Shown here: piece by piece, positions 6,535 through 26,679 of the stretch
Layout of the letters: each line of letters opens with the position of its first letter
Position numbering within the stretch: the stretch's first letter is position 1
Assembly: GCA_037442925.1 (NCBI GenBank)
Contig: JBBIPG010000019.1
Coordinates: 1 to 33,356 of the forward strand
From: Candidatus Fraserbacteria bacterium
GTDB taxonomy: Bacteria > Bipolaricaulota > Bipolaricaulia > RBG-16-55-9
DNA length: 33,356 nt
Reading direction: 5' to 3'
The notes under the pieces: generated by a model
The model's database searches: none
Told to the model about the DNA's origin: nothing
The model's input: the letters and a program-made list of their open reading frames with translations, nothing else
Translations under genes and position numbers: made by a program

Positions 6535-8019
6535 TCACTTCGGCTTGTGGCAGACCTGGCAGATATCTTCCGTGCGTCCCGCGTGATCGGCAGGGACCGG
6601 CTTCAACCCTTCCGGACCATGACAAGCCAGACACTGGCCCATGCCCACCAGACCATGAGGAATAGAAGGCGGAGCGGGGAGCGGTAACAACCCCACCCTC
6701 TGTTTGAGGTAGCGCACCAAAGAGGCAATCTCTTCCTCCGATAGCTCTCCACCCGCATCGCGCCCCATGCCGGGCATCCCCCCCGTGCCCTGGGAGATCG
6801 CGCGCGCCAGTTCCTCATCGCTCTTGCTGCCCAGCATCTCCTTGGAGGCGAGATTCGCCGTGGGGATCTGCGCTCCGGTAGGACCATGACACAGAGCACA
6901 AGACTGACTGTATATGGCACTGGGACTGCGCACGGTGGTCCCGGCCAACTCGTCCAGATATCTGGCTACTGCCAGGATCTCCTCGAAGGAGAGCGGCCCA
7001 CCTCGGGCGACGCTGAAGGCGGGCATTCCCGCTTTACCCTCACGAATCGTCTGTAGCACCTCTTCGTGCTCGAGCTTCCCGAAGAAGTCGGGATCATTCA
7101 GGCGAACCGTGGGCATCTTGTCGCCCTTGGGGCCGTGACAGCTGCTGCAATAGTTGTCAAAGAGAGTCTGACCAGAAGCCGCGATCCCTTCGGCCGAGAG
7201 CTGCAAGTAGGCAGTGAGCGCCCGGATCTCATCGTCGGTGAAAGGCCCGCCGAACTTCTGCCCGAAGGCCGGCATCCCACCGTGGCCCTCCTGGGCAATC
7301 TCCTTCAGAACTTCTTGGCCCTCTCTCTGGAGAAACTCCTTCGAGCGTAGCTCCACGCCCTCGACCTCATCCCCCCGGGCTCCGTGGCACTGGGCACAGT
7401 AGCGCTGGTAGAGGGAGCGGCCATCGCCCAACAGCCCGGCGGGGCGGATGACCGGCATCAGTCCTGCAGGCACACCCGCCGGATGGCACTTGCTGCAAGA
7501 TTCCACAGTGACCGCGTGGCACTGAGCACAATACCCCATCTGCGGGCGGTTGGTGGGCGAAGACCTGAGGTCATGAGCGATGTTCAAGTGGCAGTCCGTG
7601 CAACGGGTTCCTAACTCGACGTGGAGCTTGTGCGGGATGCGAATCTGAAGGGCATTGAACTTGAAACCCGTTTCATCCATGCGATTGGCCATCTCCTCGT
7701 GACAGCGAACGCAGTTGGGACCCACCCGATCCGGTTCAGCCATGAACCCTTGTCGATACCCTTCATACAAGAACTGATGCGGCTTACTGTGGCAGTCCAC
7801 GCAACGCACTTCGGCAAGAGACGGATGGACCAAGGAAGGAACGCCGCGGTTGGCCAGTCCTCCGTTCTCACCGTGGCAGGTGAGACAATACTCGGGATTA
7901 GAAGTCGTGTGGCGTGGCAGCCAGGAGGCAGCCCAAGCGGCGCTGCCCACAACCAGCAGCAGAACCAAACCCCATGCCCACAAGGGCATCCGCTTCCACC
8001 AAGGTGGCTCACGCCTCAT
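6535..8019 (-). CDS. Membrane-anchored 11-heme hybrid cytochrome c
   Basis: TM anchor, six closely spaced CxxCH, three class I domains (CxxCH...G(G/A)MP), and a C-terminal diheme PPSIPH..CLACH..H..CQVCH. Overlaps the stop of the Mo-family gene. Confidence 0.92.
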   Translation of the reverse strand: MRREPPWWKRMPLWAWGLVLLLVVGSAAWAASWLPRHTTSNPEYCLTCHGENGGLANRGVPSLVHPSLAEVRCVDCHSKPHQFLYEGYRQGFMAEPDRVGPNCVRCHEEMANRMDETGFKFNALQIRIPHKLHVELGTRCTDCHLNIAHDLRSSPTNRPQMGYCAQCHAVTVESCSKCHPAGVPAGLMPVIRPAGLLGDGRSLYQRYCAQCHGARGDEVEGVELRSKEFLQREGQEVLKEIAQEGHGGMPAFGQKFGGPFTDDEIRALTAYLQLSAEGIAASGQTLFDNYCSSCHGPKGDKMPTVRLNDPDFFGKLEHEEVLQTIREGKAGMPAFSVARGGPLSFEEILAVARYLDELAGTTVRSPSAIYSQSCALCHGPTGAQIPTANLASKEMLGSKSDEELARAISQGTGGMPGMGRDAGGELSEEEIASLVRYLKQRVGLLPLPAPPSIPHGLVGMGQCLACHGPEGLKPVPADHAGRTEDICQVCHKPK

Positions 8020-10244
8020 GGAGATCCCTCCTCTACTTTAACCAGCCGTACGACGGTGTCTTGCCAAGCCTGGCCTCCTGCCGCGGAGTCGGAGCGGATC
8101 GGTATCAAGGGCTGCACGTGGGTTCCGGCCTCCTTCCACCAGATGAGGGAGGTGTTGGGGTCCTGGCTGCGGAAGGCCCCACCTTGGGCGAGTCTTCCTA
8201 GTCCCCAGTGGCCCAGACCTCCGTGGATCGCGACCGTCTGCGGGTGAATCCCCTCCGTGGGGAAGGCCCGCACGCGGATCCGACCCACCTGGGATGAGAT
8301 CTCCACCCAATCGCCCTCATGAATTCTCATGCGCTTCGCCACCCCAGCATTGATCCATAGGGAGTTCCGGTGCTCGATCTCCATGAGCCACCAGAGTAAG
8401 GGGGTGACTCCGTCGTCTTGGACGGCAGTGTCAAATACGCTGAGCAGGAACTCGTCTTGTCCTAGCTGCTCATGTTCTGTCACGGCAAGATAGACCGGCA
8501 GCGCCGGTTGCTTGCGTAGAGCCAGAACAGACGAGAAGATCTCGAGTCGCTTCGAATCGGTCGAGAAGTCCCTTCCATAGTCGGGATGACCCGCCGGAGC
8601 CCAGATTCCGACCTCTGTGAGATGTTCGAGCCCTCCCTCGGCGGAGAGCTCCGGTATCGCCTGGGCCTGCTTTTCGACGTACTCTCTCATCGAGCCGAAA
8701 GGGAGAAATCTTCCCACTTCTACTCCCATCTGCTTGGCCAGCTCCAGCAGCACCTCCGGGATCGGGCGGGCTTCTCCCCAAGGGGAGATGACCGGCTGCT
8801 GGAGGGCCACGTAAGGGACGAGATCATAGGCCGGAGGGGAGTGGAGCTCCCAGCTCTCCAAGAAGGTAGCCGCCGGCAGGATGAGATCTGCCAGCTGGGC
8901 CGTCTCCGTCTGGAAGGAATCGCTCACCACCAGAAACGGGATCTTGTTTTCATCTTTCAAGATCTCTTGCACCATGTGCGGTTGGGGCTGCTCGAAGACG
9001 GGATTGGCTCGATCGATCCAGAGAAGCTCCGGGGAGGTTTCGCCCAACGAGATCTGAACGAAGAGCTCTTGAGGGGGAAGTGGGTTGATCGCTCCAGAAG
9101 GACGGGGCTCCGGGTCAGCGAGTTCATAGCGACGAGGCAGGCAGAGGCCGCCGCGCCGCTCCACATTGCCCGTAAGGGCCGCAAGCAGGAAGACCGCCCG
9201 CTCGTTCTGCAAGCCGTTCGCGCGCTGGGAGAGGCCGCCTCCGGTGAGGAGCAGCGCGGGATGCGTGGTGGCAAACTCGACGGCGATCCGACGGATATGT
9301 CCGGCTGCCACTCCACTGAATCTCTCCGCCGATTCGGGAGTATACGGGCGCAAGTGCTCTGCGAGTGCATCCATAGGCCAATTGGAGTGTTTCTCGAGAA
9401 ACTCCCGATCGTAGAGGCCCAGTTGCGTGATCACGTTGGCCATGGCCAATGCAACAGCTGCGTCGGTCCCTGACCGCAGGGGGAACCATTCGTCACTGCG
9501 GCCTGCCGTCCGGCTCAGTCTCGGGTCAAAGGTGACGAGTTTCGCCCCGCCGCGGCGGCCCTCGATGAGCCGTCGGATCAAGGGCACGTACATCTCATGC
9601 GACTCATACGGGTTGGCGCCGAAGTTTAAAATATATTTGGTCTGGGCGAGATCGGGAACATAGGAATCGGCTCCCCAGGTGAGCGAGAGGGCATAGGCTC
9701 GATTGGCAACTCTGAGCAGGCGAGCCTCGGAGACAGTCGGTCCGCCGAACGCTTGCAGAAAGCGCTGTGTGAGCGCATCTGACCTCTGGCTTGCGGGACC
9801 GCTCAAGAAGACGAACTGCTGCGCGTCGTTGTTGCGGATCTCTATGAGGCGGGAGGCGAGTTCGCTGACCGCTTCATCCCAGCTGATGGCCTGCCAGCGA
9901 CCGCTTCCTCGAGGTCCGGCACGTCGGAGAGGTCGCAGCAGTCGATCCGGCTGGAAGAGAAGCTGCACACCGGACAGTCCCTTGGGGCAGATCCCACCAC
10001 GGGCGTTTGGGTCTTTGGGATTGCCCTCGATCTTGACGACCACCCCATCTTCGAGAAAGGCTAAGATCCCGCAGCGGGCAGGGCAGAGGCGACAGACGGT
10101 CGGGACCGCAATGCGCGGCGCTCCCGTGGTTCGACCGACACTGCGGCCCCCTCGGGTGAGCTCTGTAGCCATCAGTCCATATTGAAAAACGAAGCCCGCT
10201 GTACCTGCCCAGAGAGCCCACTTCAAGAACTGCCTTCGGGTCAT
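8016..10244 (-). CDS. TAT-exported DMSO-reductase-superfamily (Psr/Ttr/Arr-like) large subunit
   Basis: TAT signal MTRRQFLK. FS0 motif CRLCPARC...ICPKG. Motifs DRLLRPLRR, W.AISWDEA, DPR.S.TA, TA.LADLILP, and C-terminal WIN...A...I..GD.V. Confidence 0.92.
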   Translation of the reverse strand: MTRRQFLKWALWAGTAGFVFQYGLMATELTRGGRSVGRTTGAPRIAVPTVCRLCPARCGILAFLEDGVVVKIEGNPKDPNARGGICPKGLSGVQLLFQPDRLLRPLRRAGPRGSGRWQAISWDEAVSELASRLIEIRNNDAQQFVFLSGPASQRSDALTQRFLQAFGGPTVSEARLLRVANRAYALSLTWGADSYVPDLAQTKYILNFGANPYESHEMYVPLIRRLIEGRRGGAKLVTFDPRLSRTAGRSDEWFPLRSGTDAAVALAMANVITQLGLYDREFLEKHSNWPMDALAEHLRPYTPESAERFSGVAAGHIRRIAVEFATTHPALLLTGGGLSQRANGLQNERAVFLLAALTGNVERRGGLCLPRRYELADPEPRPSGAINPLPPQELFVQISLGETSPELLWIDRANPVFEQPQPHMVQEILKDENKIPFLVVSDSFQTETAQLADLILPAATFLESWELHSPPAYDLVPYVALQQPVISPWGEARPIPEVLLELAKQMGVEVGRFLPFGSMREYVEKQAQAIPELSAEGGLEHLTEVGIWAPAGHPDYGRDFSTDSKRLEIFSSVLALRKQPALPVYLAVTEHEQLGQDEFLLSVFDTAVQDDGVTPLLWWLMEIEHRNSLWINAGVAKRMRIHEGDWVEISSQVGRIRVRAFPTEGIHPQTVAIHGGLGHWGLGRLAQGGAFRSQDPNTSLIWWKEAGTHVQPLIPIRSDSAAGGQAWQDTVVRLVKVEEGSP

Positions 10245-10257
10245 CTCTCTATCCTCC

Positions 10258-11166
10258 TCAGCTGAGCGGCAGGCTCTGGCCGCCGATCACCATGATGTAG
10301 CGCATGGCGAAGATCCCGATCATCACCAAGACCGCCGCGAGGGAAATCCAACCCATGCGACGATTGAAGTCCGGCAACGCCAAGATCGTCAAGGGCACCA
10401 GCGATCCCAATAAGAGCTCGACGCCCAAGAAGATCGGGCTGAAGTCGAGCGTGAGGATCAGGAGCGCTGCCTCCCGCGCCTCGGTATCTGCCGTCAGCAA
10501 CACAAGCACGTCCGAGAAGATCAAAAACAGATCGGCCAAGATCGCCGCCGCCAGAAGCCGACCCAAATCGACCATGATCTCATGGTATTGGGCACGTTCT
10601 TCCGGTGGCGCGAAGAGCCTGCGTATGGCCACAACCAAGATCATGAGGGCAATTCCCGACACCATCGCCGAGACCAAGAACAATATGGGCATGACAGCCG
10701 TGTTCCACAGGGCGCGCGCCTTGCTGAGTGCCAGAATAAAACCCGTATAGCCGTGGACAGAGATGGCTAGCGGAATTCCGATCAATCCGGTGATCTTCGT
10801 CCACTTGTCGTTCCCCCTGTGCATGAAGTAGCCGTAGATGAGGCAGTTGATGGGATAGATCGTGAGGAGGAAGCTGCCCCAGGTGACGGGTGATTTTATA
10901 TTGAGATAGGGGAAGAGGTGCCAGAAGCGCTCAGGCCGGCCCAAGTCAATGATCAAATTCAAAGGCGCCAGCACGAGCAGCACTGTCGCTAACACCACGC
11001 CGATAAACCCAATGGGCTTATATTTTTTCAGCCCAAATCCATAGGCCAACGTCGAGAGGATAAAGGAACCAGCACTCAGACCCGTGAAGTAGAAATAAAC
11101 GGCGATCCAGACTCCCAGCGGCGGCTCGTGCGCGACGTTATAGAGGACTTGAACTCCCTGTTCCAT
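10258..11166 (-). CDS. NrfD/PsrC-family quinol-interacting membrane anchor
   Basis: YFYFTGLSAG, DLGRPERFWH, SP.TWGS, YTGF.L, LWN motifs and about eight TM helices. Confidence 0.93.
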   Translation of the reverse strand: MEQGVQVLYNVAHEPPLGVWIAVYFYFTGLSAGSFILSTLAYGFGLKKYKPIGFIGVVLATVLLVLAPLNLIIDLGRPERFWHLFPYLNIKSPVTWGSFLLTIYPINCLIYGYFMHRGNDKWTKITGLIGIPLAISVHGYTGFILALSKARALWNTAVMPILFLVSAMVSGIALMILVVAIRRLFAPPEERAQYHEIMVDLGRLLAAAILADLFLIFSDVLVLLTADTEAREAALLILTLDFSPIFLGVELLLGSLVPLTILALPDFNRRMGWISLAAVLVMIGIFAMRYIMVIGGQSLPLS

Positions 11167-11172
11167 CTGCGT

Positions 11173-11832
11173 TCACTCCCCCGCCTGCGCGCGTGGGCGC
11201 AGGATCCCCAGCTTGGCCAGCCACCAGCGCACCCAGTCAACTTCCACCCGCTCTTCCGCCCCACCATAGGTGCGCATGGCGACCATATCGGCCCCGATGT
11301 AGAAGACATGAGGCAGCGTGTCCCTCTCCGGTTTGAGCACCTGGACGGCATTGGCAGCCAAGACCTTGGAGATCTCGCTTTCAGGGTCGTTGATGTCCCC
11401 GAAGATGAGAGCCCGCGTGGGACAGGCGTTCACGCAGGCGGGCTCTAAACCCACATCCACACGATGATGGCACCAGGTGCACTTCTGAACCACCCTCTTT
11501 AAGGGATCAAGATAACGCACGTCGTAGGGACAAGAAGCGATGCAATACTTGCAGCCAATGCACCGATGAGGATCTTGCATGACGATGCCATCCTCTCGTC
11601 GGAACGTGGCTTGGGTAGGACAGTTGCGCACGCAAATGGGATTCTCGCAGTTGTTGCAGAGCGCTGGCAGAAACGAGAGGCTGACGTTGGGGTAGCGGCC
11701 CTTCTGGACTACCTTGACCCAGTTGCGATAGACCCCCAAGGGGGTGCCCATCTCCGCCTTGCAGGCCACCTGGCAGGCATGGCAGCCGATGCATCTTCGT
11801 AAGTCCACTACCATGCCCCAACGGACGCTCAT
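11173..11832 (-). CDS. NrfC/PsrB/TtrB-type 4x[4Fe-4S] subunit
   Basis: CIGCHACQVAC, CNNCENPICVRNCP, CIGCKYCIASCPY, KCTWC...PACVNACP. Start placed at 11832 (RBS AGAGGA) because the ATG at 11853 overlaps the -10 element. Confidence 0.93.
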   Translation of the reverse strand: MSVRWGMVVDLRRCIGCHACQVACKAEMGTPLGVYRNWVKVVQKGRYPNVSLSFLPALCNNCENPICVRNCPTQATFRREDGIVMQDPHRCIGCKYCIASCPYDVRYLDPLKRVVQKCTWCHHRVDVGLEPACVNACPTRALIFGDINDPESEISKVLAANAVQVLKPERDTLPHVFYIGADMVAMRTYGGAEERVEVDWVRWWLAKLGILRPRAQAGE

Positions 11833-11851
11833 TGCGATCCTCTCTGCGGCC

Positions 11852-11915
11852 ATTCTAGGAAGGTCTTCAGCTCACTACGATGATCGGGATCAGCCATCGT
11901 TCTGATTCTGGTCAT
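11852..11915 (-). promoter_or_regulatory. Internal promoter for the B-C-A-cytochrome module: TAGAAT plus two Crp/Fnr-like boxes
   Basis: ATTCTA at 11852-11857. ATGATcgggATCAG at 11880-11893 and CTGATtctgGTCAT at 11902-11915. Confidence 0.7.
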
Positions 11916-11925
11916 GAGCCGTGCG

Positions 11926-13212
11926 CTAAAACGTGGCGAGTGCATAGTACGTGAGCCCCAATGCCGGAGGAATGAACAGGGCTGCCAGTTGGAGTTGCCC
12001 TACGGAGAGACCCAGCTCGTCCTTATAACCCGCTATAGACAGGATCAGAAAGAGGCTGATGAAGGCAATCCCCAAGGCTGTTCGCTTGGGCGCCTGCTCG
12101 GGAGATTCCAAGTAATGCTGCGGCTCCCGTCTCCGGTCGAGAAAGGGCCACAAGACAAAGAGGGCGAGAATCGCCCCCGGCAAGAGCACCCCGCCAATGT
12201 TCTCCGGGTTGATCACCGTGCCGGGCAGATGGGCTTCCATCCAGCCGGGGATCAGTTTTAAGAGCCCGTAGACCCAGAGGAAGTACCAGTCGGGCTTGAC
12301 GGACGGTGTTCCAGGCTGGGGTGGACCATAGATCTCAACGGGGTGCGCGGGAAAGAAGGCTGCCAGAAAGAGTAGCCCTCCCGTGAGCAGCAGGAAGAGT
12401 TGCGCCATCAAGACTGCCTGATGCGGCCACAGTGGCACGCCGATGAGCTTGCCCGCTGGGGCGCGTCCGCGGTTCGCTGCGGGCTCGGTATGCTTCTGCT
12501 CGATCATGATGAGTAGATGCAGGCCGATCAGGCCGAGGAGCAAGAGGGGCAGGAGCATGACGTGGAGCGCGTGAAAACGAGGGATGCTGCCCGGTGCCGG
12601 GAATTTTCCGGCAAACATGAGATCTGCTAAGTACGGCCCAGCCCAGGGGATAGAGCGCGCAATCTCGTAGCCGATCTTGGTCGCCGTCACCGCAAACTGG
12701 TCGAAGGGCAAGACGTACCCGACAAAGGAGGCCACCACCGTCAGACCCAAAAGCAAAAGACCTACAACCCAGTTGATCTCGCGGGGGTTCTTGTAGGCTC
12801 CGGTGAAAAACACTCTCAGCATGTGCAGGACAATCGCGGCGATCATGACGTGAGCCGCCCAGTGATGGAGCTGGCGGATGACGAAGCCAAACGGAGCCCG
12901 GTCGATCTTCACCACAGACACATAGGCTGCGGGGGCGTGTCCCTCCTCGAACTCGACGTGCTGGGTTGATGGCTCGTACATAAGCGCCAGGAAGATCCCT
13001 GTAATGACGAGCAAGACGAAGCAGAAGAGGGCGATCTCTCCTAGGAAGAAAGTCGAGTGGACCGGAAAGGCCTTGCGCAAGAATTTCTCTCTCAGACGGG
13101 TAAGACGTAGCCTCTCCTCCCACCCACTAGCCTCTGCTTGGGCAGTAGGCTTTGCTGTGGGCGGCTCCAGCGCACTTGCTGCTGTCTTGGGGTTCGACAT
13201 CTTTTCGTCCAT
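11926..13212 (-). CDS. fbcB: Cytochrome b of Rieske/cytb complex, copy A (unsplit, Thermus FbcB-like)
   Basis: RKAFPVHSTFFLGEI, heme-ligand His pairs (HHWAAH...LH and LHV...LH), PREINW, GY.LP.D, Qo motif KPDWY. Confidence 0.93.
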   Translation of the reverse strand: MDEKMSNPKTAASALEPPTAKPTAQAEASGWEERLRLTRLREKFLRKAFPVHSTFFLGEIALFCFVLLVITGIFLALMYEPSTQHVEFEEGHAPAAYVSVVKIDRAPFGFVIRQLHHWAAHVMIAAIVLHMLRVFFTGAYKNPREINWVVGLLLLGLTVVASFVGYVLPFDQFAVTATKIGYEIARSIPWAGPYLADLMFAGKFPAPGSIPRFHALHVMLLPLLLLGLIGLHLLIMIEQKHTEPAANRGRAPAGKLIGVPLWPHQAVLMAQLFLLLTGGLLFLAAFFPAHPVEIYGPPQPGTPSVKPDWYFLWVYGLLKLIPGWMEAHLPGTVINPENIGGVLLPGAILALFVLWPFLDRRREPQHYLESPEQAPKRTALGIAFISLFLILSIAGYKDELGLSVGQLQLAALFIPPALGLTYYALATF

Positions 13213-13219
13213 GGCTCCG

Positions 13220-13798
13220 TTAGGGGCCCACCCTTTCCGCGAAGCTACCGGCAGCCTCTAGCTCCCCTTGAGTATTGAAGCGGAGGGGGAGCTGAGGCAG
13301 CGGTCGAGGAGGCGGTCCTGAAACTACAATGGCTCCTCGCCCGGGATCATAGACTCCGGCATGGCAGGGGCAGAAGATTGCCTCCGAGCGCAGCTCGCTG
13401 AGCACCGTGCAGCCGAGGTGCGTGCAGATGGCGCTGTAGGCTACGAAACCCTCCGCCGTCCACTCCCGTCGCGTCGGCGACTCCAGCCTCGCTGGCTCCA
13501 GGCGTACGACGATCACGGTGTTCTCCTCAACGTCTTCCTTGCCCGCGGGCAGGGCGAGTGCGGCCTCGCTCACCCGAAGAGCGTCTCGGGTGATGCGCTC
13601 TCCCCGGCGCGGCCCCACGGCAAAGACCAACTTATCTCCTTCACCAATCATCTTGGTCGTCTGCTGCACCACCAGCGGCTTGAGCGAATTGACAGCCGAC
13701 AGCATCGCGAGCAGAGCACTTCCGGCCCCCAGACCCATAAGCCAGTGGAAGACCCGCCGGCGCGACAGACCTTTGGCCTTTGATTCTTCTCTTCTCAT
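13220..13798 (-). CDS. fbcF: Rieske [2Fe-2S] protein, copy A
   Basis: TAT-like LSRRRVF plus TM segment. CTHLGC, CPCHAGVYD and GPPPRPL. Confidence 0.95.
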   Translation of the reverse strand: MRREESKAKGLSRRRVFHWLMGLGAGSALLAMLSAVNSLKPLVVQQTTKMIGEGDKLVFAVGPRRGERITRDALRVSEAALALPAGKEDVEENTVIVVRLEPARLESPTRREWTAEGFVAYSAICTHLGCTVLSELRSEAIFCPCHAGVYDPGRGAIVVSGPPPRPLPQLPLRFNTQGELEAAGSFAERVGP

Positions 13799-13810: not shown

Positions 13811-14173
13811 TCACCACGGAATACCGTCATCGCGGTCTTGGGTGACGGCCTCATGGGTGATGAAGTAACGACGGTAAAGCACGAGCATCAGCGCCAGACC
13901 CAGGAAGAGCACTCCCGCATCCAGTGCGAGCTGTCGCGGCGGAGCTGTGGCCAACTCCCCCATGAACTTGATGGCCCAGGCCATCACGAGAGCAGCCAAG
14001 CCCAGCGCCGCAATCAGCGACCAAACCGGTTCTGGTGGCCGCTCCGTCGGACCGGGCACCAGCTCTCGCCCCTCCAGCCAGACCGATAAGACCCCCTGCA
14101 CGCCGTAGAGCGCCAGAAGGAATCCCCAAGCGATCAGCGCGATCTGGTACGCGTCTAGGTGCGTAGGGATCAT
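13811..14173 (-). CDS. fbcX: FbcX-like 3-TM accessory subunit, copy A
   Basis: LYG..G..S.WLEG.EL.PG and C-terminal Y+++F...E......PW resemble Thermus FbcX as recalled, and it sits directly before the Rieske gene. Confidence 0.65.
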   Translation of the reverse strand: MIPTHLDAYQIALIAWGFLLALYGVQGVLSVWLEGRELVPGPTERPPEPVWSLIAALGLAALVMAWAIKFMGELATAPPRQLALDAGVLFLGLALMLVLYRRYFITHEAVTQDRDDGIPW

Positions 14174-14793
14174 GGCACCACCTCCTCAAAGAGATCGAGC
14201 ATGGTTGCGGAGCGGCTCTTGTGATAGCTCGTGAAATCGTCAGAATCGGAGTGAGCCAGAAGCACTCGCATCTTGCCAGGGACAATCGCTTGGTCGAAAG
14301 GGTCACCGGTGTCGAGCTTGCGTCGGAGCTCCACCACCGTGCCCTGCTCGCTTTCAGCACCTGCACTCTCTAAGATATCGTCACGTCCCCCCAGCTTCGC
14401 ATCTGCCGTATGCGAGACGAAATCGTTGGCGAAGTTGTCCTGCAGGTGTAGCCCTTCTGAATCCACATAAGTGATCAGGATGTCCGCGCCCTTCATCATG
14501 GGGCCTTCACCTCCGAGGCCTACAGCCACCCAGCCGCGATCGGGGCACCTCAGCCCGATGAAGATCTCATCTTCCACGATCGTCCAGTGGAGTTCCATGC
14601 CGGTCGCTTCATCGCGGTAGCTCTTGGTGTACTCACCCTCTTCAATGATCCCGTCGAGAGTGGCCGCGCGGAGCCCCAAGCGACGGGCCTGATCGGTCTC
14701 CCAGTTTCTGCGGAAGTCCAGGGTCAAAAGGGCAGCAATCCCGACAGCCAAGGCTAGTGCTATCAAGGGTAGCAACAGCCCGTTTCGCTGCAT
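14170..14793 (-). CDS. Membrane-anchored DOMON-domain protein, probable Met/His heme-b cytochrome
   Basis: N-terminal TM. GWVAVG, M.GADI, R.LDTGD.FD, ..AH.......YH are the DOMON core with candidate Met and His ligands. Confidence 0.85.
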   Translation of the reverse strand: MQRNGLLLPLIALALAVGIAALLTLDFRRNWETDQARRLGLRAATLDGIIEEGEYTKSYRDEATGMELHWTIVEDEIFIGLRCPDRGWVAVGLGGEGPMMKGADILITYVDSEGLHLQDNFANDFVSHTADAKLGGRDDILESAGAESEQGTVVELRRKLDTGDPFDQAIVPGKMRVLLAHSDSDDFTSYHKSRSATMLDLFEEVVP

Positions 14794-15641
14794 CAGGACT
14801 CCTTCTCCAGTGCTTCCACAGCCGCTTGTGCCAGCGCAAGCACCTGCTCAAGCTGGCTCTCTACCTGCTCGAGCCGGAAGGTGTGCCACCCCTCTTGGAT
14901 GGCGCGCATCCCCGCCTCTGCTTGAGCCAGGAGTTGCGCGGCAGATCCGGTGTCCACTTCATCCTGCTTGGCCGAGATCAGTTTCCGGATGAGCTCAAGC
15001 TGTTCCTGGGCTTGTCTTATGAGCGTGAGCAAGAAGCGGGCCTTCAGCGGCTCATCCGGTCGGATGCCCAGGCGCTCGTTATGGCAGGCCGTACACGTTG
15101 CTGCCAGCTCCTGTGGGCTTAGAATGGCGACGGCCATCGCCCCATGGCAGGTGACGCAGTTGGGTCCACGCCCCGTCTCCTGAAGTTGCTGATAGTGGAC
15201 GCTCTGCCGGAAGTAGGCCAGCTCCGCCGTGTGGCAGCGCCCGCAGGTCTCCGGGACCTTGGTGAAATAAAGAGGGCTTTGCGGGTCACGCGAGGGTCGA
15301 AGTCCCTGGTGAGCACGCTCCAGCTGGGCTTGGGTTGGGTCACCTCCGTGGCACTCGGAGCAGGAGACTCCCTGTTGCGCATGGAGGGAATCCTCCCAGT
15401 CGGCAAACGTATGCCCGATGAACGTCCGAGGCAGAGTGCGGTGGCACGTGACACAAGCACTTTCAGCCAGTTCTCCCGGTGGAGGCTTCGCCGTCTCAGT
15501 TCCGGGCGTGGGCACAACTGGAGCCTCGCCCGGCACCCGTTGGGGCGGAAGGCGGAAGCTGTAGAGAGTCAGCCCCACGGCCACCACCAGAAGAAGTGCC
15601 AAGCCCAGCAATCCATACCGTCGCAGCGTGCGCGTCTTCAT
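14793..15641 (-). CDS. Membrane-anchored pentaheme cytochrome c with C-terminal helical domain
   Basis: CVTCH, CSECH, CGRCH, CVTCH, CTACH. N-terminal TM and an Ala/Gln/Glu-rich helical tail. Confidence 0.9.
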   Translation of the reverse strand: MKTRTLRRYGLLGLALLLVVAVGLTLYSFRLPPQRVPGEAPVVPTPGTETAKPPPGELAESACVTCHRTLPRTFIGHTFADWEDSLHAQQGVSCSECHGGDPTQAQLERAHQGLRPSRDPQSPLYFTKVPETCGRCHTAELAYFRQSVHYQQLQETGRGPNCVTCHGAMAVAILSPQELAATCTACHNERLGIRPDEPLKARFLLTLIRQAQEQLELIRKLISAKQDEVDTGSAAQLLAQAEAGMRAIQEGWHTFRLEQVESQLEQVLALAQAAVEALEKES

Positions 15642-15746: not shown

Positions 15747-16253
15747 TTACTCCTTGCCCTTCTTGATGGTCATGGTCCCGGCCGGAGGCTTCGTGACGTC
15801 GAGGTTGAGCGCGTGGCACTGCGTGCAGAAGCCGCCGTAGTTGGTGAGGAAGGCGTTGTCCGCTGCGCCCGTGAAGTGGACCAAGTGGAGGTCCCGGCTG
15901 AGAGGCATCTTGCTATCTGCCGCGTGGCAGTTGAGACAGAAAGTCGGCAGTTCCTGGGAAGCTACCATGGCCGCCACGTCCGGATGCTTCCCGCTGACGG
16001 TGGCCTCTGGCCAAGCGGCCTTAACGAGGTCTACGATCTCTTGAGGAACACCTGCGGTCGCCCAGCTACCGATGATGGTGGAGAGCTTGAAGTTGTCCTT
16101 GTGACAGCTGACGCAGCCGTTGGGGGTCTCGTCTGTAGCCGTGATGCCCGGGATCTGCGGGACTTGTTGCTCCTGCGTGAAGACGGCGACACCGGCCCCA
16201 ACCCCAAGCAGCAGGGCTACCATGAGCACGAACGGTAGACTCTTTCTGAGCAT
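15747..16253 (-). CDS. Secreted triheme cytochrome c
   Basis: Signal peptide. CVSCH, CLNCH, CTQCH. RBS AAGGAGGTGA. Confidence 0.88.
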   Translation of the reverse strand: MLRKSLPFVLMVALLLGVGAGVAVFTQEQQVPQIPGITATDETPNGCVSCHKDNFKLSTIIGSWATAGVPQEIVDLVKAAWPEATVSGKHPDVAAMVASQELPTFCLNCHAADSKMPLSRDLHLVHFTGAADNAFLTNYGGFCTQCHALNLDVTKPPAGTMTIKKGKE

Positions 16254-16362: not shown

Positions 16363-16391
16363 TTCACAACCACGAGTCCGTGCACTATAAT
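16363..16391 (+). promoter_or_regulatory. Sigma70-type promoter for the 16415 cytochrome
   Basis: TTCACA (16363-16368), 17 bp spacer, TATAAT (16386-16391). Confidence 0.7.
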
Positions 16392-16414
16392 AAGACTAAA
16401 AGGGGTGATAATAG

Positions 16415-19736: not shown

Positions 19737-19800
19737 ATTCTAACACCTCTATCAGCTCACCAATATGAGCTTACTCAGGAAGGCAGATGATCTACATCAT
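19737..19800 (-). promoter_or_regulatory. Internal promoter for the CbcL-like pair: TAGAAT plus two Crp/Fnr-like boxes
   Basis: ATTCTA at 19737-19742. ATGAGcttaCTCAG at 19765-19778 and ATGATctacATCAT at 19787-19800. Confidence 0.7.
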
Positions 19801-21617
19801 CAAAACGTGATGTGGCACTTCAAACAACCCTCGAAATTGGCAGCTCCCTCTGGTGGCACGTCCTTGCGGTGGCACGTCCCACAGAACTCGTGCCACAGGG
19901 TGGGGACGGCAGTCTCGTAGTTCATATAATCGAGATGATCCATCTTCTCAACGTTGGTGTGGCACAGCGTGCAGTTAAAGCCGAGATTGACGTGCAGCTC
20001 GTGTGAGAACTTCACCTTCTCAGAACTCGTAGGGATCTGGGCCGAGTGGCACTGCAGGCAGTCTTGCAGGCTGGCTCCCTCCAGTTGCGCTCGGGCCGGA
20101 TGGCAGTCGGTGCAGCGATTCACCTGGGCACCATGTTGGGGGTCTTGATAGCCCACCTCGTCATGACAGATAGCACACTCGAGACCGCGCCGGACAACGT
20201 GTGTCTCATGTTGAAACGTCCACTTGTCGATCTCTTTCGCAATCGTCTCGGCGTCGAGATGACAAGCGGTGCATCGAGTCTCATAAGGTACTTGGGCCCA
20301 GGGGGGCTCCAGCTCCAGCTCGATGCCCACCTCAAGAAGGGCGTTCTTCAGATCTTCGTATGCCTTAAGCAGAACCGCGGAAGCATAGCCAGGGTTGTGG
20401 ACGCCGTGGGCGTTCGCGACGAAGTCGATGTTCTCTTGAGCCTGAAGAGCGAGCTCGTTGGGCGGGATGAGAGCTTGCACTTTCTGGTTTAGGGATTGGA
20501 CAGCTTCCAGACGGGTGGAGAGCACCTGCTCCCAAGTCTGGTAGATCTTGAAAAACGGAGCGCCGTGACAGGACATGCAACTCACCTCGCTGGCCAGCTT
20601 GCGGCCTTCTTTGGAGATGAGGTGGCAGCTCTCGCAGCTGACGCCCGCCAAGTACATCGCCGCAGGCAAGGGTTCGACATCTTTGCCTCCAATGCCTATG
20701 TAGAGATCGCGTTGCGGAGAGTGGCTACCCCCGACGTGACACGTCTCACAGCGGGTGGCCACTGCTTCCAGTGCCTTGGGGATCTGGTGTTGGATCTCGA
20801 TGTGGCAGCTTAAGCACTCGACTTTGTGCTCTGTGACGTGCATGCGGTGGAGAAATTCTGTTTCATTGATGCGCGCCAGGCGTGTGGGCTCGTTGTGGCA
20901 AGTCAGGCAGCGGTCTGGGGGGACCTCGCCTGCGCCCTGTACCACGTTGGCGTGGCAGAGGGTGCACTCCATACCGAGCCGCTTGACTTCCGCGTGGTCG
21001 AAGCTCAGGCCCGCCGTGGTGATGATCTGTTCCGGCGTCTCGTGGCAGAGCGTGCAGCGCGCCGTATCCTCGTTGAGTCTAGTCTCTTTGAAGTGGCAGA
21101 GGAAGCAGCTGCTCTCGGTCACGGCGATGTGCTGCCCCTGGACAATCTGGCTGTGACAGGAGGTACAGCGGAGTTTCTTCTCGCGGCGCATCTCGGTAAG
21201 ATGCGGCCGGTGGTCGAAGAGCACATTCTCGAAGAGCTCACGCCCGACGAGCAATCGTTGCTCGTGGCAGCCCGGCCTAAGGCAGCTTTCGTCGGGCACC
21301 TCGGCCCAGGGGTTCGTGCCATAGGTGCCAGTAAAGTAGCTCACGACCATGGAGAGCGCTTCGTACTTCTTGCGGAACTCCGCACTAATCCCCGGAGGAA
21401 TGTGGCACTCGACGCAGGCCACGTCACGGTGTGTGGAGGTCTCCCAGGACTCATAGTAGGGTTTCATGAAGTGGCAGGTGCCACAGAAGGCTGGCTGGGA
21501 GCTGATTTCGACACCCACGAAGAGCGCGGCCACACCCAAAGGCAGCGCGATGAGGGCCAGCCACAGCAGACGTAGCAGCCAGGGATAAGTCCGCCATCGG
21601 CGCAAGATCTGCATCAT
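19800..21617 (-). CDS. Large multiheme cytochrome c (18 CxxCH plus one CX4CH) with NapC/NirT-like N-terminus
   Basis: N-terminal TM, then SQPAFCGTCH.M.PYYESW..STH..V.CVECH. Atypical CLRPGCH. Repeated F.H..H spacers. Confidence 0.93.
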   Translation of the reverse strand: MMQILRRWRTYPWLLRLLWLALIALPLGVAALFVGVEISSQPAFCGTCHFMKPYYESWETSTHRDVACVECHIPPGISAEFRKKYEALSMVVSYFTGTYGTNPWAEVPDESCLRPGCHEQRLLVGRELFENVLFDHRPHLTEMRREKKLRCTSCHSQIVQGQHIAVTESSCFLCHFKETRLNEDTARCTLCHETPEQIITTAGLSFDHAEVKRLGMECTLCHANVVQGAGEVPPDRCLTCHNEPTRLARINETEFLHRMHVTEHKVECLSCHIEIQHQIPKALEAVATRCETCHVGGSHSPQRDLYIGIGGKDVEPLPAAMYLAGVSCESCHLISKEGRKLASEVSCMSCHGAPFFKIYQTWEQVLSTRLEAVQSLNQKVQALIPPNELALQAQENIDFVANAHGVHNPGYASAVLLKAYEDLKNALLEVGIELELEPPWAQVPYETRCTACHLDAETIAKEIDKWTFQHETHVVRRGLECAICHDEVGYQDPQHGAQVNRCTDCHPARAQLEGASLQDCLQCHSAQIPTSSEKVKFSHELHVNLGFNCTLCHTNVEKMDHLDYMNYETAVPTLWHEFCGTCHRKDVPPEGAANFEGCLKCHITF

Positions 21618-21620
21618 CTC

Positions 21621-23105
21621 TCACCCCCGACGCCGCTCACGCCGATAGAGCAGGACGACCAATAGCGTCAGCGCGAGATATCCCCAGATGAGCGCCAGCC
21701 CCACAAGTCGCACGCCGCGCACGCCCAAGAGGCCGTGCAGTTGGCTGCGTACTTCCTCAGCGATTGAGCGCGCCCGACGCGTCAGCTCCTCGACCTTTGT
21801 CACATCCAGCGAGTGCTGCACCGGCAGCGCCTCAATGAGATAGGTGCGCGCCTCGATCATGCGCGAGCGATACGGCGCGATGTCATATGCCTGAGCCTCA
21901 GCCGCTTGGAGCGCCGCCTCCGCTTCCTCTAACGCCTGTCGAGCCCCCGCCAGCATGACCTCAAGCTTCTCCACATCCTTGGAATCCGGGAGATGACAGA
22001 GGTTGCAAACTCCCTCCATCGAGCGCCCCATGCCCACGGACGCCACCTCGTGATTACCATGGCAGCCAGCGCATTCAGCGATGCTTTGTTCTTCCATCGC
22101 TTTCTTGTGCACGCTGGCATCGAAGTAGCGCCGCTCATTGATATGGCATGTCCCACAGACTTTGGTGATGTCCTCGATGCCAGGGGGAATGGCCCCGTGG
22201 GTGCCATGACACGTGGCACAACTGGGAGCCTTCGTATTCCCCTGCTCAAGGAGCGCGACTCCGTGGACACCTCTCTGGAAGGCCTCGACTTCGTCGGCAG
22301 GCAGACCGTAAGGTTCCATAAGGGCAGGGTCACTGTGGCAGCGGCCGCACGTTTCGGGAACCCGTGCGACGTAGACGGAGCTGCGGGGATCAAGAGCCAG
22401 CAAGATCCGATGGGCCGTATGACAATCGGTGCAGACGGCGACGTTGGTATCTCCCTCTTTCCACCGCTGACCATGCTGGGATGTCAAGTATTCCGCGAAC
22501 TGATCGGTGCGCAGTCCGTAGGGTTTCATCTTTAGGGGATCGGCGTGGCAAGAGCCGCATAGTTGGGGAATCTGGTCTCGTGAAGGAATCCCCCGAAAAC
22601 CGAGCGCCCGGTCATGCGCCCTCTCCCGATCGAGTGTGGCTGGATCGCCCCCATGGCAAGCGACACAATCGACGTCGAAGAGGGCATGGACACTCTCAAG
22701 GTAGTCGACCTTGATCTCACTATGGCAGACGAGACAACTTGGCCCCCCTGTCTCTTGGTCAGCGCCAACTCGGACCAACAAGATTACCAAGGCAACCAAC
22801 AGCAGCCCCAGTAGCCGAATGGACGGACGTCGAGGTCGGCGGGAGCGCCTAAACATGGGGACAGCAAACAAGAGCACGAAGAAGGCTACGAAAATAAAGA
22901 GCGCCTGATTGGGGGTCAACTTCTCAAGAACGTAATAAAACGGAAGGAAGTACCACGGAGGCGAGGCAGCGACCGAACTGAGAGGATCGGCGGGTGGCCC
23001 CAGTGTAGGCACCCACAGGATCGCCAGGGTAAACAGTAGACCCAACGCCAGCAAGATGACGATCAGTCCATCGAGCAGGAGATCAGCGTATGTCCTCTTG
23101 GGCAT
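21621..23105 (-). CDS. Rieske/cytb subunit IV fused to a nonaheme cytochrome c with C-terminal TM
   Basis: N-terminus LGPPADP....PPWYFLPFY with three TMs, followed by nine CxxCH. RBS GGAGGT supports a start at 23105. Confidence 0.88.
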   Translation of the reverse strand: MPKRTYADLLLDGLIVILLALGLLFTLAILWVPTLGPPADPLSSVAASPPWYFLPFYYVLEKLTPNQALFIFVAFFVLLFAVPMFRRSRRPRRPSIRLLGLLLVALVILLVRVGADQETGGPSCLVCHSEIKVDYLESVHALFDVDCVACHGGDPATLDRERAHDRALGFRGIPSRDQIPQLCGSCHADPLKMKPYGLRTDQFAEYLTSQHGQRWKEGDTNVAVCTDCHTAHRILLALDPRSSVYVARVPETCGRCHSDPALMEPYGLPADEVEAFQRGVHGVALLEQGNTKAPSCATCHGTHGAIPPGIEDITKVCGTCHINERRYFDASVHKKAMEEQSIAECAGCHGNHEVASVGMGRSMEGVCNLCHLPDSKDVEKLEVMLAGARQALEEAEAALQAAEAQAYDIAPYRSRMIEARTYLIEALPVQHSLDVTKVEELTRRARSIAEEVRSQLHGLLGVRGVRLVGLALIWGYLALTLLVVLLYRRERRRG

Positions 23106-23772
23106 TGTTCGATACCTCCACGGGTTTGGCTGGCACATCTGGCTTTTGGGAGACGGGCGCAAAGAGGCCCTGGCGGGCAACGAAATAGAGATGGACGCCG
23201 ATCAAGAGAGTGGTCAACCAAGGCAAGAGTCCTACATGGAAGACATAGAAGCGCAGGAGCGCCCCCTCGCCCAGCTCCACGCCACCCCAAAGGAAGTCAA
23301 GAAAGGGTTTTCCAATGAGAGGTATCCGCTCGATGGCGCGACGTGCAGCATCCGTGGTCCAGAAAGCCTGTTGATCCCAGGGCAAGAGCAGCCCCGTGAA
23401 CCCGAAGGCCATCACAAGCAGAAGCAGTATGACGCCGATGGCCCAGTTGAGTTCTCGCTCGCGGTATGCGCCATACAGCCCGATCCGCAGCATGTGCAAC
23501 AAGGTCACGAGAATCAGCAAGTCCGCTCCCCAGCGATGCAGGCCACGCACGAGCCAGCCCAGTTGCGCTGTGCCCATGAGGTACTGAATGCTTGGGCGGG
23601 CTTCTGCTACTGTGGGCTGATAGTAGACCATGAGCAGGATGCCCGTGAGGATCTCGACCAAGAACAGGAACACCACCGCGCCACCCAGCAAGTGGCCCAG
23701 GTGGAATTGAGGCGGCAGAGGCAGCTCCAACTCCCGGCGGATGAGTCCGCGCGTGCGTTCCCAAAGAGCCAC
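23083..23772 (-). CDS. Cytochrome b6-type (split, N-terminal) subunit of the third Rieske/cytb complex
   Basis: TGILL..YYQP, RGLHRWGA...LH, RELNW, FTG.LLPWDQ, RFYVFH...H. GTG start directly after the Rieske stop. Confidence 0.92.
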   Translation of the reverse strand: MALWERTRGLIRRELELPLPPQFHLGHLLGGAVVFLFLVEILTGILLMVYYQPTVAEARPSIQYLMGTAQLGWLVRGLHRWGADLLILVTLLHMLRIGLYGAYRERELNWAIGVILLLLVMAFGFTGLLLPWDQQAFWTTDAARRAIERIPLIGKPFLDFLWGGVELGEGALLRFYVFHVGLLPWLTTLLIGVHLYFVARQGLFAPVSQKPDVPAKPVEVSNNAQEDIR

Positions 23773-24494: not shown

Positions 24495-25637
24495 ATGCTC
24501 CAGACTCTATTCGCAGAATATGGTCTATACTTTGCTTGGCTTGTCTCTCTTGTCGCCACCGGCGGCAGCCTCTACTTCAGCGAAGTGATGGGGTTCATCC
24601 CGTGCGCACTCTGCTGGTATCAACGCATCTTCATGTACCCCCTTGTAATCCTTTTGGGGATGGCGAGCTTCCGCAGTGACCGCAGGATCGCGGGTTACGT
24701 CCTGCCGCTGAGCGTCATCGGCTTGAGCATCGCGTTTTATCATTACTTTCTTGTGGAACAAAAACTCTTGGGGGAATTGGAGTCGCCCCTATGTCAGGTG
24801 GGCGTGCCCTGCGACACCAAATACATCGAATGGCTCGGCTTCATCACCATTCCCTTCCTGTCGCTGGTGGCCTTTACCCTGATCACAATTTTGATGGTCT
24901 ATGTCCGCCGCGCCTTGCGAGCGGAACCTGAGACGTGGGTATCTCCGGCTTCCGAGGTGAAAGCTCCAACCGAAGTGAAAGAACCCGTATTTAAGAGTTC
25001 GATCAGATTGCCCGCTGTGGCTCTGCTCTTGGCCGCCGCAGGCACTTTGACACTGGGGTTCGATCTCAGCCGGAAGTATCCCGGCGACCCACCCACCACA
25101 TGGTCGGTGGAGCGTCTGGTAGAGGTTCCAGAAGCCTTGCAGATAGATGGTGTGCTGCAAGAAGGTGAGTACCAGAACAGGCTGAGTTCCTTCAGAATCA
25201 AGATGGATCTCTATTGGAGCGTCCGTGAGGATCGGGTCTATTTCGGGCTGAAGGCCCCTACCCAGGGCTGGGTTGCACTGGGGTTCAACAGCGCAGTCCC
25301 CTTGATGAGAGGAGCAGACATCATCATCGGCTATGTCAAGGATGGCCAACTCGCTCTGGAGGATAGCTACGCGAACTCACGCATCGGCCATCAGACCGAT
25401 ATTCAACTGGGTGGTCGCGATGACATTCTGGATAGAGCGAGCACTCAGGATGAAGGGGGAACGATCATCGAATTCTCTCGACGTTTGGATACCGGCGATA
25501 CGTTTGACATGCCCATTCGTCCGGCCGAGAAACTGATGATATTGCTTGCTTACGGGCAGCGAGATGATCTCATCAGTTACCACGATCGGATGAGAGCGCT
25601 CATGGCGAATATTGAATTGGTTCCGGAAGGCCGTTGA
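24495..25637 (+). CDS. DsbB/BdbC-type disulfide-bond formation protein fused to a DOMON domain
   Basis: GSLYFSEV.G..PCALCWYQRI.MYP, second Cys pair CQVGVPC, GFITIPFLS; then a linker, a TM, and DOMON (GWVALG, MRGADI, LDTGD.FD, SYH). Confidence 0.9.
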   Translation: MLQTLFAEYGLYFAWLVSLVATGGSLYFSEVMGFIPCALCWYQRIFMYPLVILLGMASFRSDRRIAGYVLPLSVIGLSIAFYHYFLVEQKLLGELESPLCQVGVPCDTKYIEWLGFITIPFLSLVAFTLITILMVYVRRALRAEPETWVSPASEVKAPTEVKEPVFKSSIRLPAVALLLAAAGTLTLGFDLSRKYPGDPPTTWSVERLVEVPEALQIDGVLQEGEYQNRLSSFRIKMDLYWSVREDRVYFGLKAPTQGWVALGFNSAVPLMRGADIIIGYVKDGQLALEDSYANSRIGHQTDIQLGGRDDILDRASTQDEGGTIIEFSRRLDTGDTFDMPIRPAEKLMILLAYGQRDDLISYHDRMRALMANIELVPEGR

Positions 25638-25999
25638 TGCTGACGCATTTGGAAGCCTACGAGATTGGGCTCGTGGCCTGGGTGGCGCTGCTGGCGGTCT
25701 GGGGGCTCCAGGGGTTGATCGCGGCCTATGTGGAAGACCCCAAGCCCACAGCGGCAGAGCGCAGACCCGTGAACGAATCCTGGAGCGCTCTCTTGGTGAT
25801 TCTTGCTTTGATTGGGCTGGAGATCTTCTGGGCCGTGCTCTTTGTAAGAGGAATCTTCGAAGGAGCGTCATCGAACACGTTGGCCTTATATGGGGTCTTG
25901 CTCACCTTCACTTTGGCAGCTGCATTGATCGTCTATCGGCGCGCCTTCGTGCCGGATGAGACTCTACTTCAAGAGCGCGATGAGGGAGTTCCCTGGTGA
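25637..25999 (+). CDS. fbcX: FbcX-like 3-TM accessory subunit, copy B
   Basis: Clear paralog of 13811-14173 (THL.AY.I.L.AW...YRR.F...E...Q.RD.G.PW). Confidence 0.7.
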   Translation: MLTHLEAYEIGLVAWVALLAVWGLQGLIAAYVEDPKPTAAERRPVNESWSALLVILALIGLEIFWAVLFVRGIFEGASSNTLALYGVLLTFTLAAALIVYRRAFVPDETLLQERDEGVPW

Positions 26000-26016
26000 C
26001 TAAGAAGGGAAAATCG

Positions 26017-26679
26017 ATGTCGACGGGTGACAAGCCCAGAAAGCCAAACACGGGAGAGCAACGAAGGTTTTCGCGTCGAGCGCTCGTGCAATGGGTGCTT
26101 GGCGTCGGAGCCGCCTTCGCTATGGGAGCCATGTCCATCGCGGCTCTCTCCATTCGACCCACGAAGCGGAATGCCAAACAGCAGGAGCCGGTAGCAGCAG
26201 GGGACCGCCTGGTCTTCGTGATCGGAGCCAACAAAGGGCAACCCATTCGCCGTGACAGCATCCCGGTGAACGAAGCCGTGCTCGCCTTCCCTGAGGGAAA
26301 GGATGGCAATCCAGACAACTTGATCCTGCTCTGCCATCTCGATCCCGTGAGCCTCGCACCGCCGACCATCCTCGCATGGACGGCAGAGGGTCTTGTGGCC
26401 TATAGTGCTATCTGTACCCATCTGGGCTGTACGGCCTCTACTCTTCAGAGGATGGAAGGGACGGACTTCCCCCAGCTGCTGTGCCCCTGTCACAGCGGCG
26501 TCTTTGACCCGCAGAGCGGTGCCATCGTCAAAGCCGGACCACCACCGCGTCCTCTGCCACAACTGCCCATCCAGATCGATAACCAGGGAGAGTTGATCGC
26601 TGCGGGCTGGTTCGAAGAGCCCCCTGGAGTCGTTCCCAAAGGGGAGCTACGGCGATGGCGAGAGAAGAACAAGAACTGA
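26017..26679 (+). CDS. fbcF: Rieske [2Fe-2S] protein, copy B
   Basis: FSRRAL plus TM. CTHLGC, CPCHSGVFD, GPPPRPLPQLP. Alternative GTG start at 25996. Confidence 0.94.
   Translation: MSTGDKPRKPNTGEQRRFSRRALVQWVLGVGAAFAMGAMSIAALSIRPTKRNAKQQEPVAAGDRLVFVIGANKGQPIRRDSIPVNEAVLAFPEGKDGNPDNLILLCHLDPVSLAPPTILAWTAEGLVAYSAICTHLGCTASTLQRMEGTDFPQLLCPCHSGVFDPQSGAIVKAGPPPRPLPQLPIQIDNQGELIAAGWFEEPPGVVPKGELRRWREKNKN

Follow-up and report, generated by a model that had tools for sequence, protein, structure and literature searches.

The 33,356-nucleotide stretch of DNA analyzed here (the window; contig JBBIPG010000019.1, positions 1 to 33,356, of the Candidatus Fraserbacteria assembly GCA_037442925.1) carries on its reverse strand a gene for a molybdopterin-family subunit without the molybdenum (Mo)-ligating cysteine of Psr-type enzymes. 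This gene (8016-10244; moB in the gene-order strings below) encodes 742 amino acids (aa) and is classed as an A-type subunit of complex iron-sulfur molybdoenzymes (CISM) by its open reading frame (ORF), Pfam matches (PF00384, PF04879, and PF01568), and structure matches. It belongs to a run of nine genes on the same strand, from 15641 to 6535, with intergenic gaps of -4 to 72 bases. In order, the run encodes a five-heme cytochrome (14793-15641; Pfam and heme motifs), a DOMON protein (14170-14793; Pfam), a small membrane protein (13811-14173; ORF annotation), a Rieske protein (13220-13798; PF00355), and a cytochrome b belonging to a Rieske/cytochrome b complex (11926-13212; profile matches). 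These are followed by an NrfC/PsrB-type four-cluster Fe-S subunit, recognized by its Cys pattern and lacking a twin-arginine translocation (Tat) signal of its own (11173-11853), an NrfD/PsrC-type membrane subunit of 302 aa with a predicted quinone site (10258-11166; PF03916, E 5e-46), the Cys-less subunit, and a membrane-anchored 11-heme cytochrome (6535-8019; profile matches and heme motifs), whose start shares 4 bases with the moB stop.

Absence of the Mo ligand

A protein search returned 2320 matches, of which the best 120 were used; one of these is the window's own cluster, and counts out of 120 family members refer to the window protein plus 119 others. The 119 homologues are 718 to 795 aa long, share 43% to 82% identity with the window subunit, and have many columns in common that are invariant. 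In the window subunit the twin-arginine motif TRRQFLK (10221-10241) and the FS0 [4Fe-4S] motif (Cys51, Cys54, Cys58, and Cys86, then Lys88; 9987-10094) are intact, as a first-pass annotation made from the sequence alone had reported. Across the family, a simple pattern finds the Tat motif in 101 of 120 members, FS0 is kept in all 120, and position 88 is Lys or Arg in 118.

The same annotation had noted that the Psr-type ligating Cys is missing and that no in-frame TGA replaces it, and both observations hold: the ORF is open over all 742 aa and contains no in-frame TGA. The best solved relative of the subunit is PsrA (2VPW, E 2e-58, phmmer against the PDB). In the former ligand loop (9699-9752), this search aligns Arg178 with Cys173 of PsrA, the Mo ligand of that enzyme, and with Cys141 of acetylene hydratase; the ArrA Cys falls one residue earlier, on Leu177. 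A family profile reproduces the PsrA register, and column 178 holds 16 residue types, including Ser in 8, Asp in 4, and Cys in none of 120 members, so no conserved Cys, Ser, or Asp occupies the ligand position. Cys is present at this column in 130 of 131 rows of the sister lineage described below. The Arg178 codon (AGA, 9713-9711) is one base away from TGA. A selenocysteine codon masked by a read error is ruled out, since the ten closest relatives (66% to 82% identical) carry Q, W, K, R, or H at this position and Cys in none. A substitute Ser or Asp ligand within the loop was likewise rejected, as columns 168 to 185 each have one of these residues in at most 30 of 120 members; Cys occurs at column 172 in five rows. 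None of these three residues is conserved at any loop position. The first-pass alternative of an enzyme with an unusual ligand and substrate is disfavored. Asn181, also in the loop, is present in 119 of 120 members. Convergence of this residue with the A-N motif of ActB was considered and rejected, because the ActB Asn lies five residues further on.

An AlphaFold2 model of the subunit based on the 120-row alignment (mean predicted local distance difference test score 90.5) was matched by Foldseek to ArrA (6CZ7, template modeling [TM] score 0.82) and PsrA (2VPW, TM 0.80). The subunit resembles PsrA/PhsA, ArrA, and TtrA in fold (TM 0.80 to 0.82), FS0, Tat export, and NrfC/NrfD partners, and differs from them in lacking the Mo-ligating Cys and the basic residues of domain IV. 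In NCBIfam the subunit scores under all cut-offs shown, with 351 of the 694 bits required for PhsA and 216 of 440 for QrcB.

Residues of the cofactor pocket

The domain IV cofactor-binding stretch (8403-8444) reads G-R605-S-P-V-H609-T-F-A-R613 in PsrA, whereas the window subunit has F-D605-T-A-V-Q609-D-D-G-V613, with Asp605, Gln609, and Val613 in place of Lys/Arg, His, and Arg. The first-pass statement that this stretch (SVFDTAVQDDG) lacks the R..H pattern is therefore correct for the window subunit but does not extend to its relatives at large: the closest Cys-bearing relatives have K-W-N-V-H-T-Q-S-R, and His609 is still present in 72 of 120 members of the Cys-less family. Full loss of the domain IV motif is, on these alignments, restricted to the window protein's own subclade, in which 8 of 11 members have Asp or Glu at 605.

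Six residues (Arg150, His174, Arg336, Lys605, Arg613, and Asn711) are invariant in the Cys-bearing sisters and lost or variable in the Cys-less family; the window subunit has Gly336 and Gln711. We scored a signature of five second-sphere residues, His174, Arg336, Lys605, His609, and Arg613. It is complete in 116 of 120 Cys-bearing sisters, although their counts are not independent because these sequences are 59% to 100% alike, and it is present also in most deep Cys-bearing branches. The score does not exceed 2 in 118 of the 120 rows without Cys, and is 0 in the window subunit and in 10 of the 11 members of its subclade. Among the reference enzymes, it is 3 to 5 in ArrA-, ArxA-, and TtrA-like rows, 0 to 1 in 19 of 20 QrcB-like rows, and 1 in all seven ActB-like rows.

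Distribution, gene order, and partner subunits

A scan of genome contigs with the single protein as query gave no match. An alignment query on GTDB genomes confirmed 162 relatives, and 80 of these, all from genomes titled as metagenome-assembled genomes (MAGs), were retained. Five of the 80 loci with pieces shorter than 600 aa (L035, L051, L054, L074, and L095) were dropped from the locus counts, as were L089, in which the loop is uncovered, and two ArxA-like paralogues. The Cys-less subunit is encoded at 65 of the 80 retained loci (of 162 relatives), in MAGs that span at least eight phyla by title; the titles include Chloroflexota, Desulfobacterota, Methylomirabilota, Armatimonadota, Nitrospinota, Nitrospirota, Bacillota, Cytophagia, and others. 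The nearest named relative is a Bipolaricaulota MAG (67%), which makes this phylum the probable one for the host. Of 60 related genomes just 1 carries an orthologue, and none was seen in a same-genus genome that is 80% complete. The subunit gene is split in L053 and L054 (2 of 80 loci), with L074 as a third case.

The gene order nrfC-nrfD-moB-cytochrome is conserved at the Cys-less loci, where nrfD is directly upstream of moB in 60 of 61 cases and nrfC is in place in 47 of 55. A multiheme gene lies directly downstream in 46 of the 50 Cys-less loci with enough flank and in none of five Cys-bearing loci. Homologues of the cytochrome b were found at 13 of 69 Cys-less loci, and this gene is therefore not part of the conserved core. 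No conserved substrate-related gene was found among the neighbors; regulators, cytochrome b, ATP synthase, and heme genes differ by lineage.

The window cytochrome consists of a six-heme QrcA/ActA-like core (approximately aa 35 to 185), three class I monoheme domains, and two C-terminal hemes. Its N-terminal core is shared by 48 of 52 downstream cytochromes. The core matches a QrcA/ActA profile with an hhalign probability of 98.5 (E 2.8e-15) and has ActA (6LOD_A, E 5.9e-5) as its best PDB match, similarities that CxxCH repeats may inflate. The NrfC proteins have 16 invariant Cys (49 of 49), and a Tat (RR) motif was found in the NrfC neighbors of 0 of 48 loci. In NrfD, Tyr24, Tyr140, and Arg289 are present in 60 of 60 sequences and Ser92 in 59 of 60, and Thr141 is also kept; by eye, these residues match the quinone-site and gate residues listed for Wolinella succinogenes PsrC (PMC8076601, Table 2). 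The window NrfD is of the approximately eight-helix type (seven helices by a crude hydropathy count), and full-length Qrc/Act-type membrane subunits have 429 to 468 aa and 9 to 10 helices by the same count.

TorD-type chaperones serve cofactor insertion (PMC4464133). With a TorD profile built in this analysis, no match was found near moB at any of 65 Cys-less loci, including the subset of 35 that are flanked by 3 kb on each side. The profile detected TorD at 4 of 9 Cys-bearing loci, three of the four having been its seeds, and at non-seed Arr-, Ttr-, and Psr-like loci. The single PF02613 match in the host genome adjoins narG.

Several lineages show variations on this arrangement. An ExtKL-like five-heme protein is encoded upstream of the operon in L024, L044, and L077, the last two of which have a Rieske/cytochrome b pair as well. 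In a Desulfobacterota subclade (L053, L061, L062, L064, L066, L068, L070, L075, and L076), nrfD-moB-cytochrome stands directly behind F0 genes of ATP synthase (atpI, a, c). There nrfC is absent from the locus, and a close orthologue (E <=1e-92) lies elsewhere in five of five genomes searched; the subunit of this subclade has a lipoprotein-like L-x-G-C behind the Tat motif.

Phylogeny and origin

For phylogenetic comparison, QrcB references were chosen by curated cut-off and ActB-like references by their fused architecture. PhsA, ArxA-like, and AioA references came from annotated plasmids, and ArrA- and TtrA-like references were taken below cut-off; the ArxA label was assigned from gene order. 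Five trees were built, four of them with the ligand loop removed, and supports are from the Shimodaira-Hasegawa-like approximate likelihood ratio test (SH-aLRT) and SH-like. The Cys-less family joined a Cys-bearing lineage at 99 to 100 in all five, and QrcB and ActB joined ArxA/ArrA at 99 to 100 in all four trees inspected for that part. A tree that unites the family, QrcB, and ActB in one clade is rejected by an approximately unbiased (AU) test (40 rows, LG+G4; 366.7 log units, p 1.7e-10). By these trees, the origin of the family is separate from that of QrcB and ActB, the latter deriving from the ArxA/ArrA branch here and in PMC10100899. Five split ActB1-like subunits without the Cys (L101, L158, L172, L174, and L182), in A-B-C order, branch with fused ActB and not with QrcB.

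Among representatives of 50% clusters, the main group comprises 79 Cys-less rows and a single Cys-bearing row, P0250, in a basal position (support 95 with FastTree and 85 to 87 in another tree). P0250 keeps the Cys, Arg336, Lys605, His609, and Arg613, and not His174. Of the likely catalytic relatives of the main Cys-less group, it is the nearest. A single clade for the main group is not rejected by the AU test (p 0.18). One origin for all Cys-less rows including L067 and L099 was also considered and is rejected (p 3.6e-11). Two further Cys-less groups are nested within Cys-bearing clades with support of 95 to 100, which by the tree topology are at least two additional independent losses of the Cys (L067, L099, P0257, P0290, P0289, and P0298). 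The cytochrome encoded downstream of the L099 gene differs in type; it has five hemes and by eye resembles NapC.

The Cys-bearing sisters are the closest catalytic relatives of the family (34% to 37% identity) and have the same B-C-A order. They share with it a C-terminal F.S.DP...WW...DP.GG insert and a T-F-K/Q-W-N-V-H motif. Unlike the family, they keep the Cys, His174, Arg336, Lys605, His609, and Arg613, often have torD adjacent, and do not have a multiheme gene directly downstream. The sister lineage includes an operon (B, C, A, torD) on plasmid pAZKH of Azoarcus sp. KH32C (WP_015451713.1), located on an arsenic island that also carries arsA, ACR3, and a binding protein-sensor-regulator trio. 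The lineage may be the AnrA (antimonate reductase) family. The lineage branches beside TtrA with support of 84 to 88 in two trees and is unresolved in two others. Wells et al. report an unnamed sister lineage of TtrA that they take to be Cys-using (PMC10100899), with which it may be identical.

A putative cofactor-free respiratory complex

We consider it probable that the subunit, having lost its Mo-binding Cys, binds no Mo and acts as exporter and scaffold of a four-subunit quinone:cytochrome c membrane complex. The first-pass annotation had suggested an independently evolved oxidoreductase in B-C-A order resembling Qrc or alternative complex III (ACIII), and had named QrcB and ActB as cofactor-less members of the family of this subunit, as they are indeed reported to be (PMC6303296, PMC13059093, and PMC8552683). 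The suggestion is supported by the missing ligand, the absence of TorD, the QrcA/ActA-like cytochrome downstream, and the position of the family in the trees. The family likely works like Qrc or ACIII without belonging to either, and likely evolved separately.

Qrc, the menaquinone reductase of Desulfobacterota (QrcABCD; QrcB, NF041783), has the same four kinds of subunit: a multiheme cytochrome, to which the core of the family cytochrome is homologous through QrcA, a CISM-like subunit, a four-cluster Fe-S subunit, and an NrfD-type membrane subunit. Unlike the A-B-C-D order of Qrc, that of the family is, in Qrc terms, C-D-B-A, and the window proteins fall below the curated cut-offs not only for QrcB but also for QrcC (120 of 400 bits) and QrcD (47 of 570 bits). 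The family further differs in its NrfD of approximately 300 aa, compared with the 10-helix type of QrcD, in its intact FS0 with a Lys/Arg bridge, in its cytochromes of 6 to 21 hemes, and in the separate origin supported by the AU test. With ACIII (ActABCDEF) it shares a CISM-like subunit without Mo ligand and an ActA-like heme wire, and the host of the window operon has an aa3-type oxidase. The class I heme domains of the window cytochrome are reminiscent of ActE and of the mobile domain that holds the sixth heme in Flavobacterium ActA (PMC8552683). Unlike in ACIII, the A-type and Fe-S subunits are unfused and there is one short NrfD subunit; no separate actD, actE, or actF was recognized among the recurring neighbors of the Cys-less loci. 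The family also differs from ACIII in that its Tat-bearing subunit keeps FS0.

In the proposed mechanism, the subunit would take its signal-less NrfC-type partner through the Tat system, and quinol would be oxidized at a site on the outer side of NrfD. The proximal cluster of NrfC would relay electrons into the six-heme core, a route that has been proposed for ACIII (PMC8552683). In the window host, the three class I heme domains could hand the electrons over, the most plausible recipients being the aa3-type oxidase or other acceptors on the outer side, and FS0 would be a structural or dead-end cluster. Cytochrome binding, direction, and energy coupling are all inferred. Quinol oxidation is somewhat favored as the direction of electron flow in this host because of the class I heme domains on the cytochrome and because the genome encodes an aa3-type oxidase, another PF00115 protein, and a [NiFe] hydrogenase; the reverse, Qrc-like direction is the less probable of the two though by no means remote. 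The six- and twelve-heme versions in other genomes may run the Qrc way. The complex likely descends from a Cys-bearing oxyanion reductase of the BCAD type in which catalysis was lost and a cytochrome gene took the place of torD.

Possible retained binding and alternative explanations

Several observations weigh against a cofactor-free scaffold, apart from the mutual similarity of the 120 sisters and the possible inflation of cytochrome matches by CxxCH repeats. Asp240, Arg242, Gly259, Asp261, Glu447, and Glu463 are each present in 120 of 120 members, and the guanine-binding and fold motifs are held more strictly than in QrcB or ActB: Asp261 is replaced by Glu in 14 of 17 QrcB and 6 of 7 ActB, and the Lys/Arg88 bridge kept in 118 of 120 members is Leu in 15 of 17 QrcB. 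His341 occurs in 115 of 120 members (the window subunit has Arg). Residue roles were carried over by alignment. At 8 of 55 loci nrfC lies away from the other operon genes. The TorD result is weakened in that TorD is not nearby at 5 of 9 Cys-bearing loci either, that three of the four positive ones were profile seeds, and that TorD-type chaperones can work in trans. The host also has cofactor synthesis genes (MoaA over cut-off, with PF12804 genes alongside) and NarG, TtrA-like, and Fdh-like enzymes as cofactor users, so supply is no obstacle to cofactor binding.

In a broader reading, which we find doubtful at present, one molybdoenzyme branch turned at least three times into Qrc/ACIII-like oxidoreductases. 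The family would then be an intermediate stage, its metal gone but FS0 and a nucleotide or pterin kept, or else it would hold ligand-free Mo or tungsten (W) in an Asn-lined pocket and act on some substrate. If so, the Cys-bearing sisters and the staged intermediates would allow stepwise study of the origin of ACIII-type complexes.

It is unlikely that the subunit, though without metal, still has a guanine nucleotide or a metal-free pterin dinucleotide bound at one or both former sites, where it would assist folding or serve as a redox relay by FS0. Such binding would be consistent with the invariance of Asp240, Arg242, Asp261, and Glu447, with Asn211 and Glu214 in 117 of 120 members, and with the alteration of Asp261 in most QrcB and all ActB rows. 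However, Gly209, Asn414, Pro457, and Glu463 are present in every QrcB and ActB row, suggesting that several of these motifs are partly structural, and the basic residues on the phosphate side of domain IV are lost, to the point of an acidic residue at 605 in most of the window subclade.

An active enzyme, with Mo/W-bis-pyranopterin guanine dinucleotide held without a protein ligand as in AioA and IdrA, or with Asn181 near the metal, and with the cytochrome as electron partner, seems quite improbable. The strong conservation of FS0, Lys88, both guanine motifs, and Asn181 would suit it, as would the complete fold of the model and a host that makes the cofactor. However, the ligand-free AioA of Thermus retains Lys at 336 and G-R in domain IV (one sequence, with a loose domain IV alignment), whereas the window subunit has Gly336 and Asp605. 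On the AioA register used for comparison, a His of Thermus AioA would lie four residues ahead of the ligand position; an apparent N-R match between the subunit and AioA was discarded as a three-residue shift on that register. Residues in the ligand column range freely between Gly and Trp, which is not the pattern of a catalytic site; TorD is missing from all 65 Cys-less loci, and no substrate-related neighbor is conserved. AioA and IdrA do bind Mo without an amino-acid ligand (PMC10100899), so the absent Cys alone is no proof of cofactor loss; they form a branch distant from the family, and AioA, which carries a [3Fe-4S] cluster (PMC10100899), differs further in having a Rieske small subunit as partner.

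That the subunit is a decaying remnant or sequencing artifact, with the NrfCD pair working with the cytochrome alone, is exceedingly hard to credit: NrfCD-multiheme modules without a Mo subunit exist (PMC9386147), the gene is split at the loci named above, and orthologues are rare in related genomes, but the 119 full-length homologues with their universal FS0 and invariant columns, and an NrfC without its own export signal, speak against it.

Relation to described complexes

The scaffold interpretation would make the family a further cofactor loss, from a different branch and with a short NrfD, in which the four-part layout of Qrc and ACIII was rebuilt. Wells et al. (2023) describe three independent cofactor losses in the superfamily (FhcB, Nqo3, and ActB; PMC10100899), and according to Duarte et al. 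(2018) cofactor-less subunits go with NrfD proteins of the 10-helix group. Complexes of the nrfC-nrfD-moB-cytochrome type are absent from the parts of the PMC8076601 catalogue that were consulted, and no description of a Cys-less B-C-A-cytochrome family was found in the open literature, supplements and subscription reviews being outside the search; the tree of Wells et al. may include such sequences. The family is widespread and, it appears, previously undescribed. The octaheme genes in operons with DMSO-reductase-family subunits that Hug et al. (2013) report from a Chloroflexi genome (PMC3971608) may be an earlier sighting. Since database labels on members read thiosulfate/polysulfide reductase or anaerobic selenocysteine-containing dehydrogenase, claims of sulfur respiration based on these genomes may be mistaken. 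Pocket residues lost by degrees, together with the repeated losses nested in the Cys-bearing lineage, form a natural series in which to ask how an enzyme becomes a respiratory scaffold.

Other genes in the window

A promoter and terminator scan of the window gave counts at chance level; one near-consensus sigma-70 site (11 of 12) lies at 16363-16411, between divergent cytochrome genes at 16253 and 16415. The operon is part of a respiratory island (5922-28004) that has 8 of the genome's 10 ORFs with at least three heme motifs, a cytochrome b561-like gene, and Rieske/cytochrome b pairs at 13798-11926, 24266-23083, and 25996-28004. The third pair is preceded by a DsbB-DOMON fusion (24495-25637). 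The island also encodes an 18-heme NapC-type protein (19800-21617) and, at 21621-23180, a fusion of a cytochrome b subunit IV-like domain with a nine-heme cytochrome, homologues of which occur near the operon in six loci.

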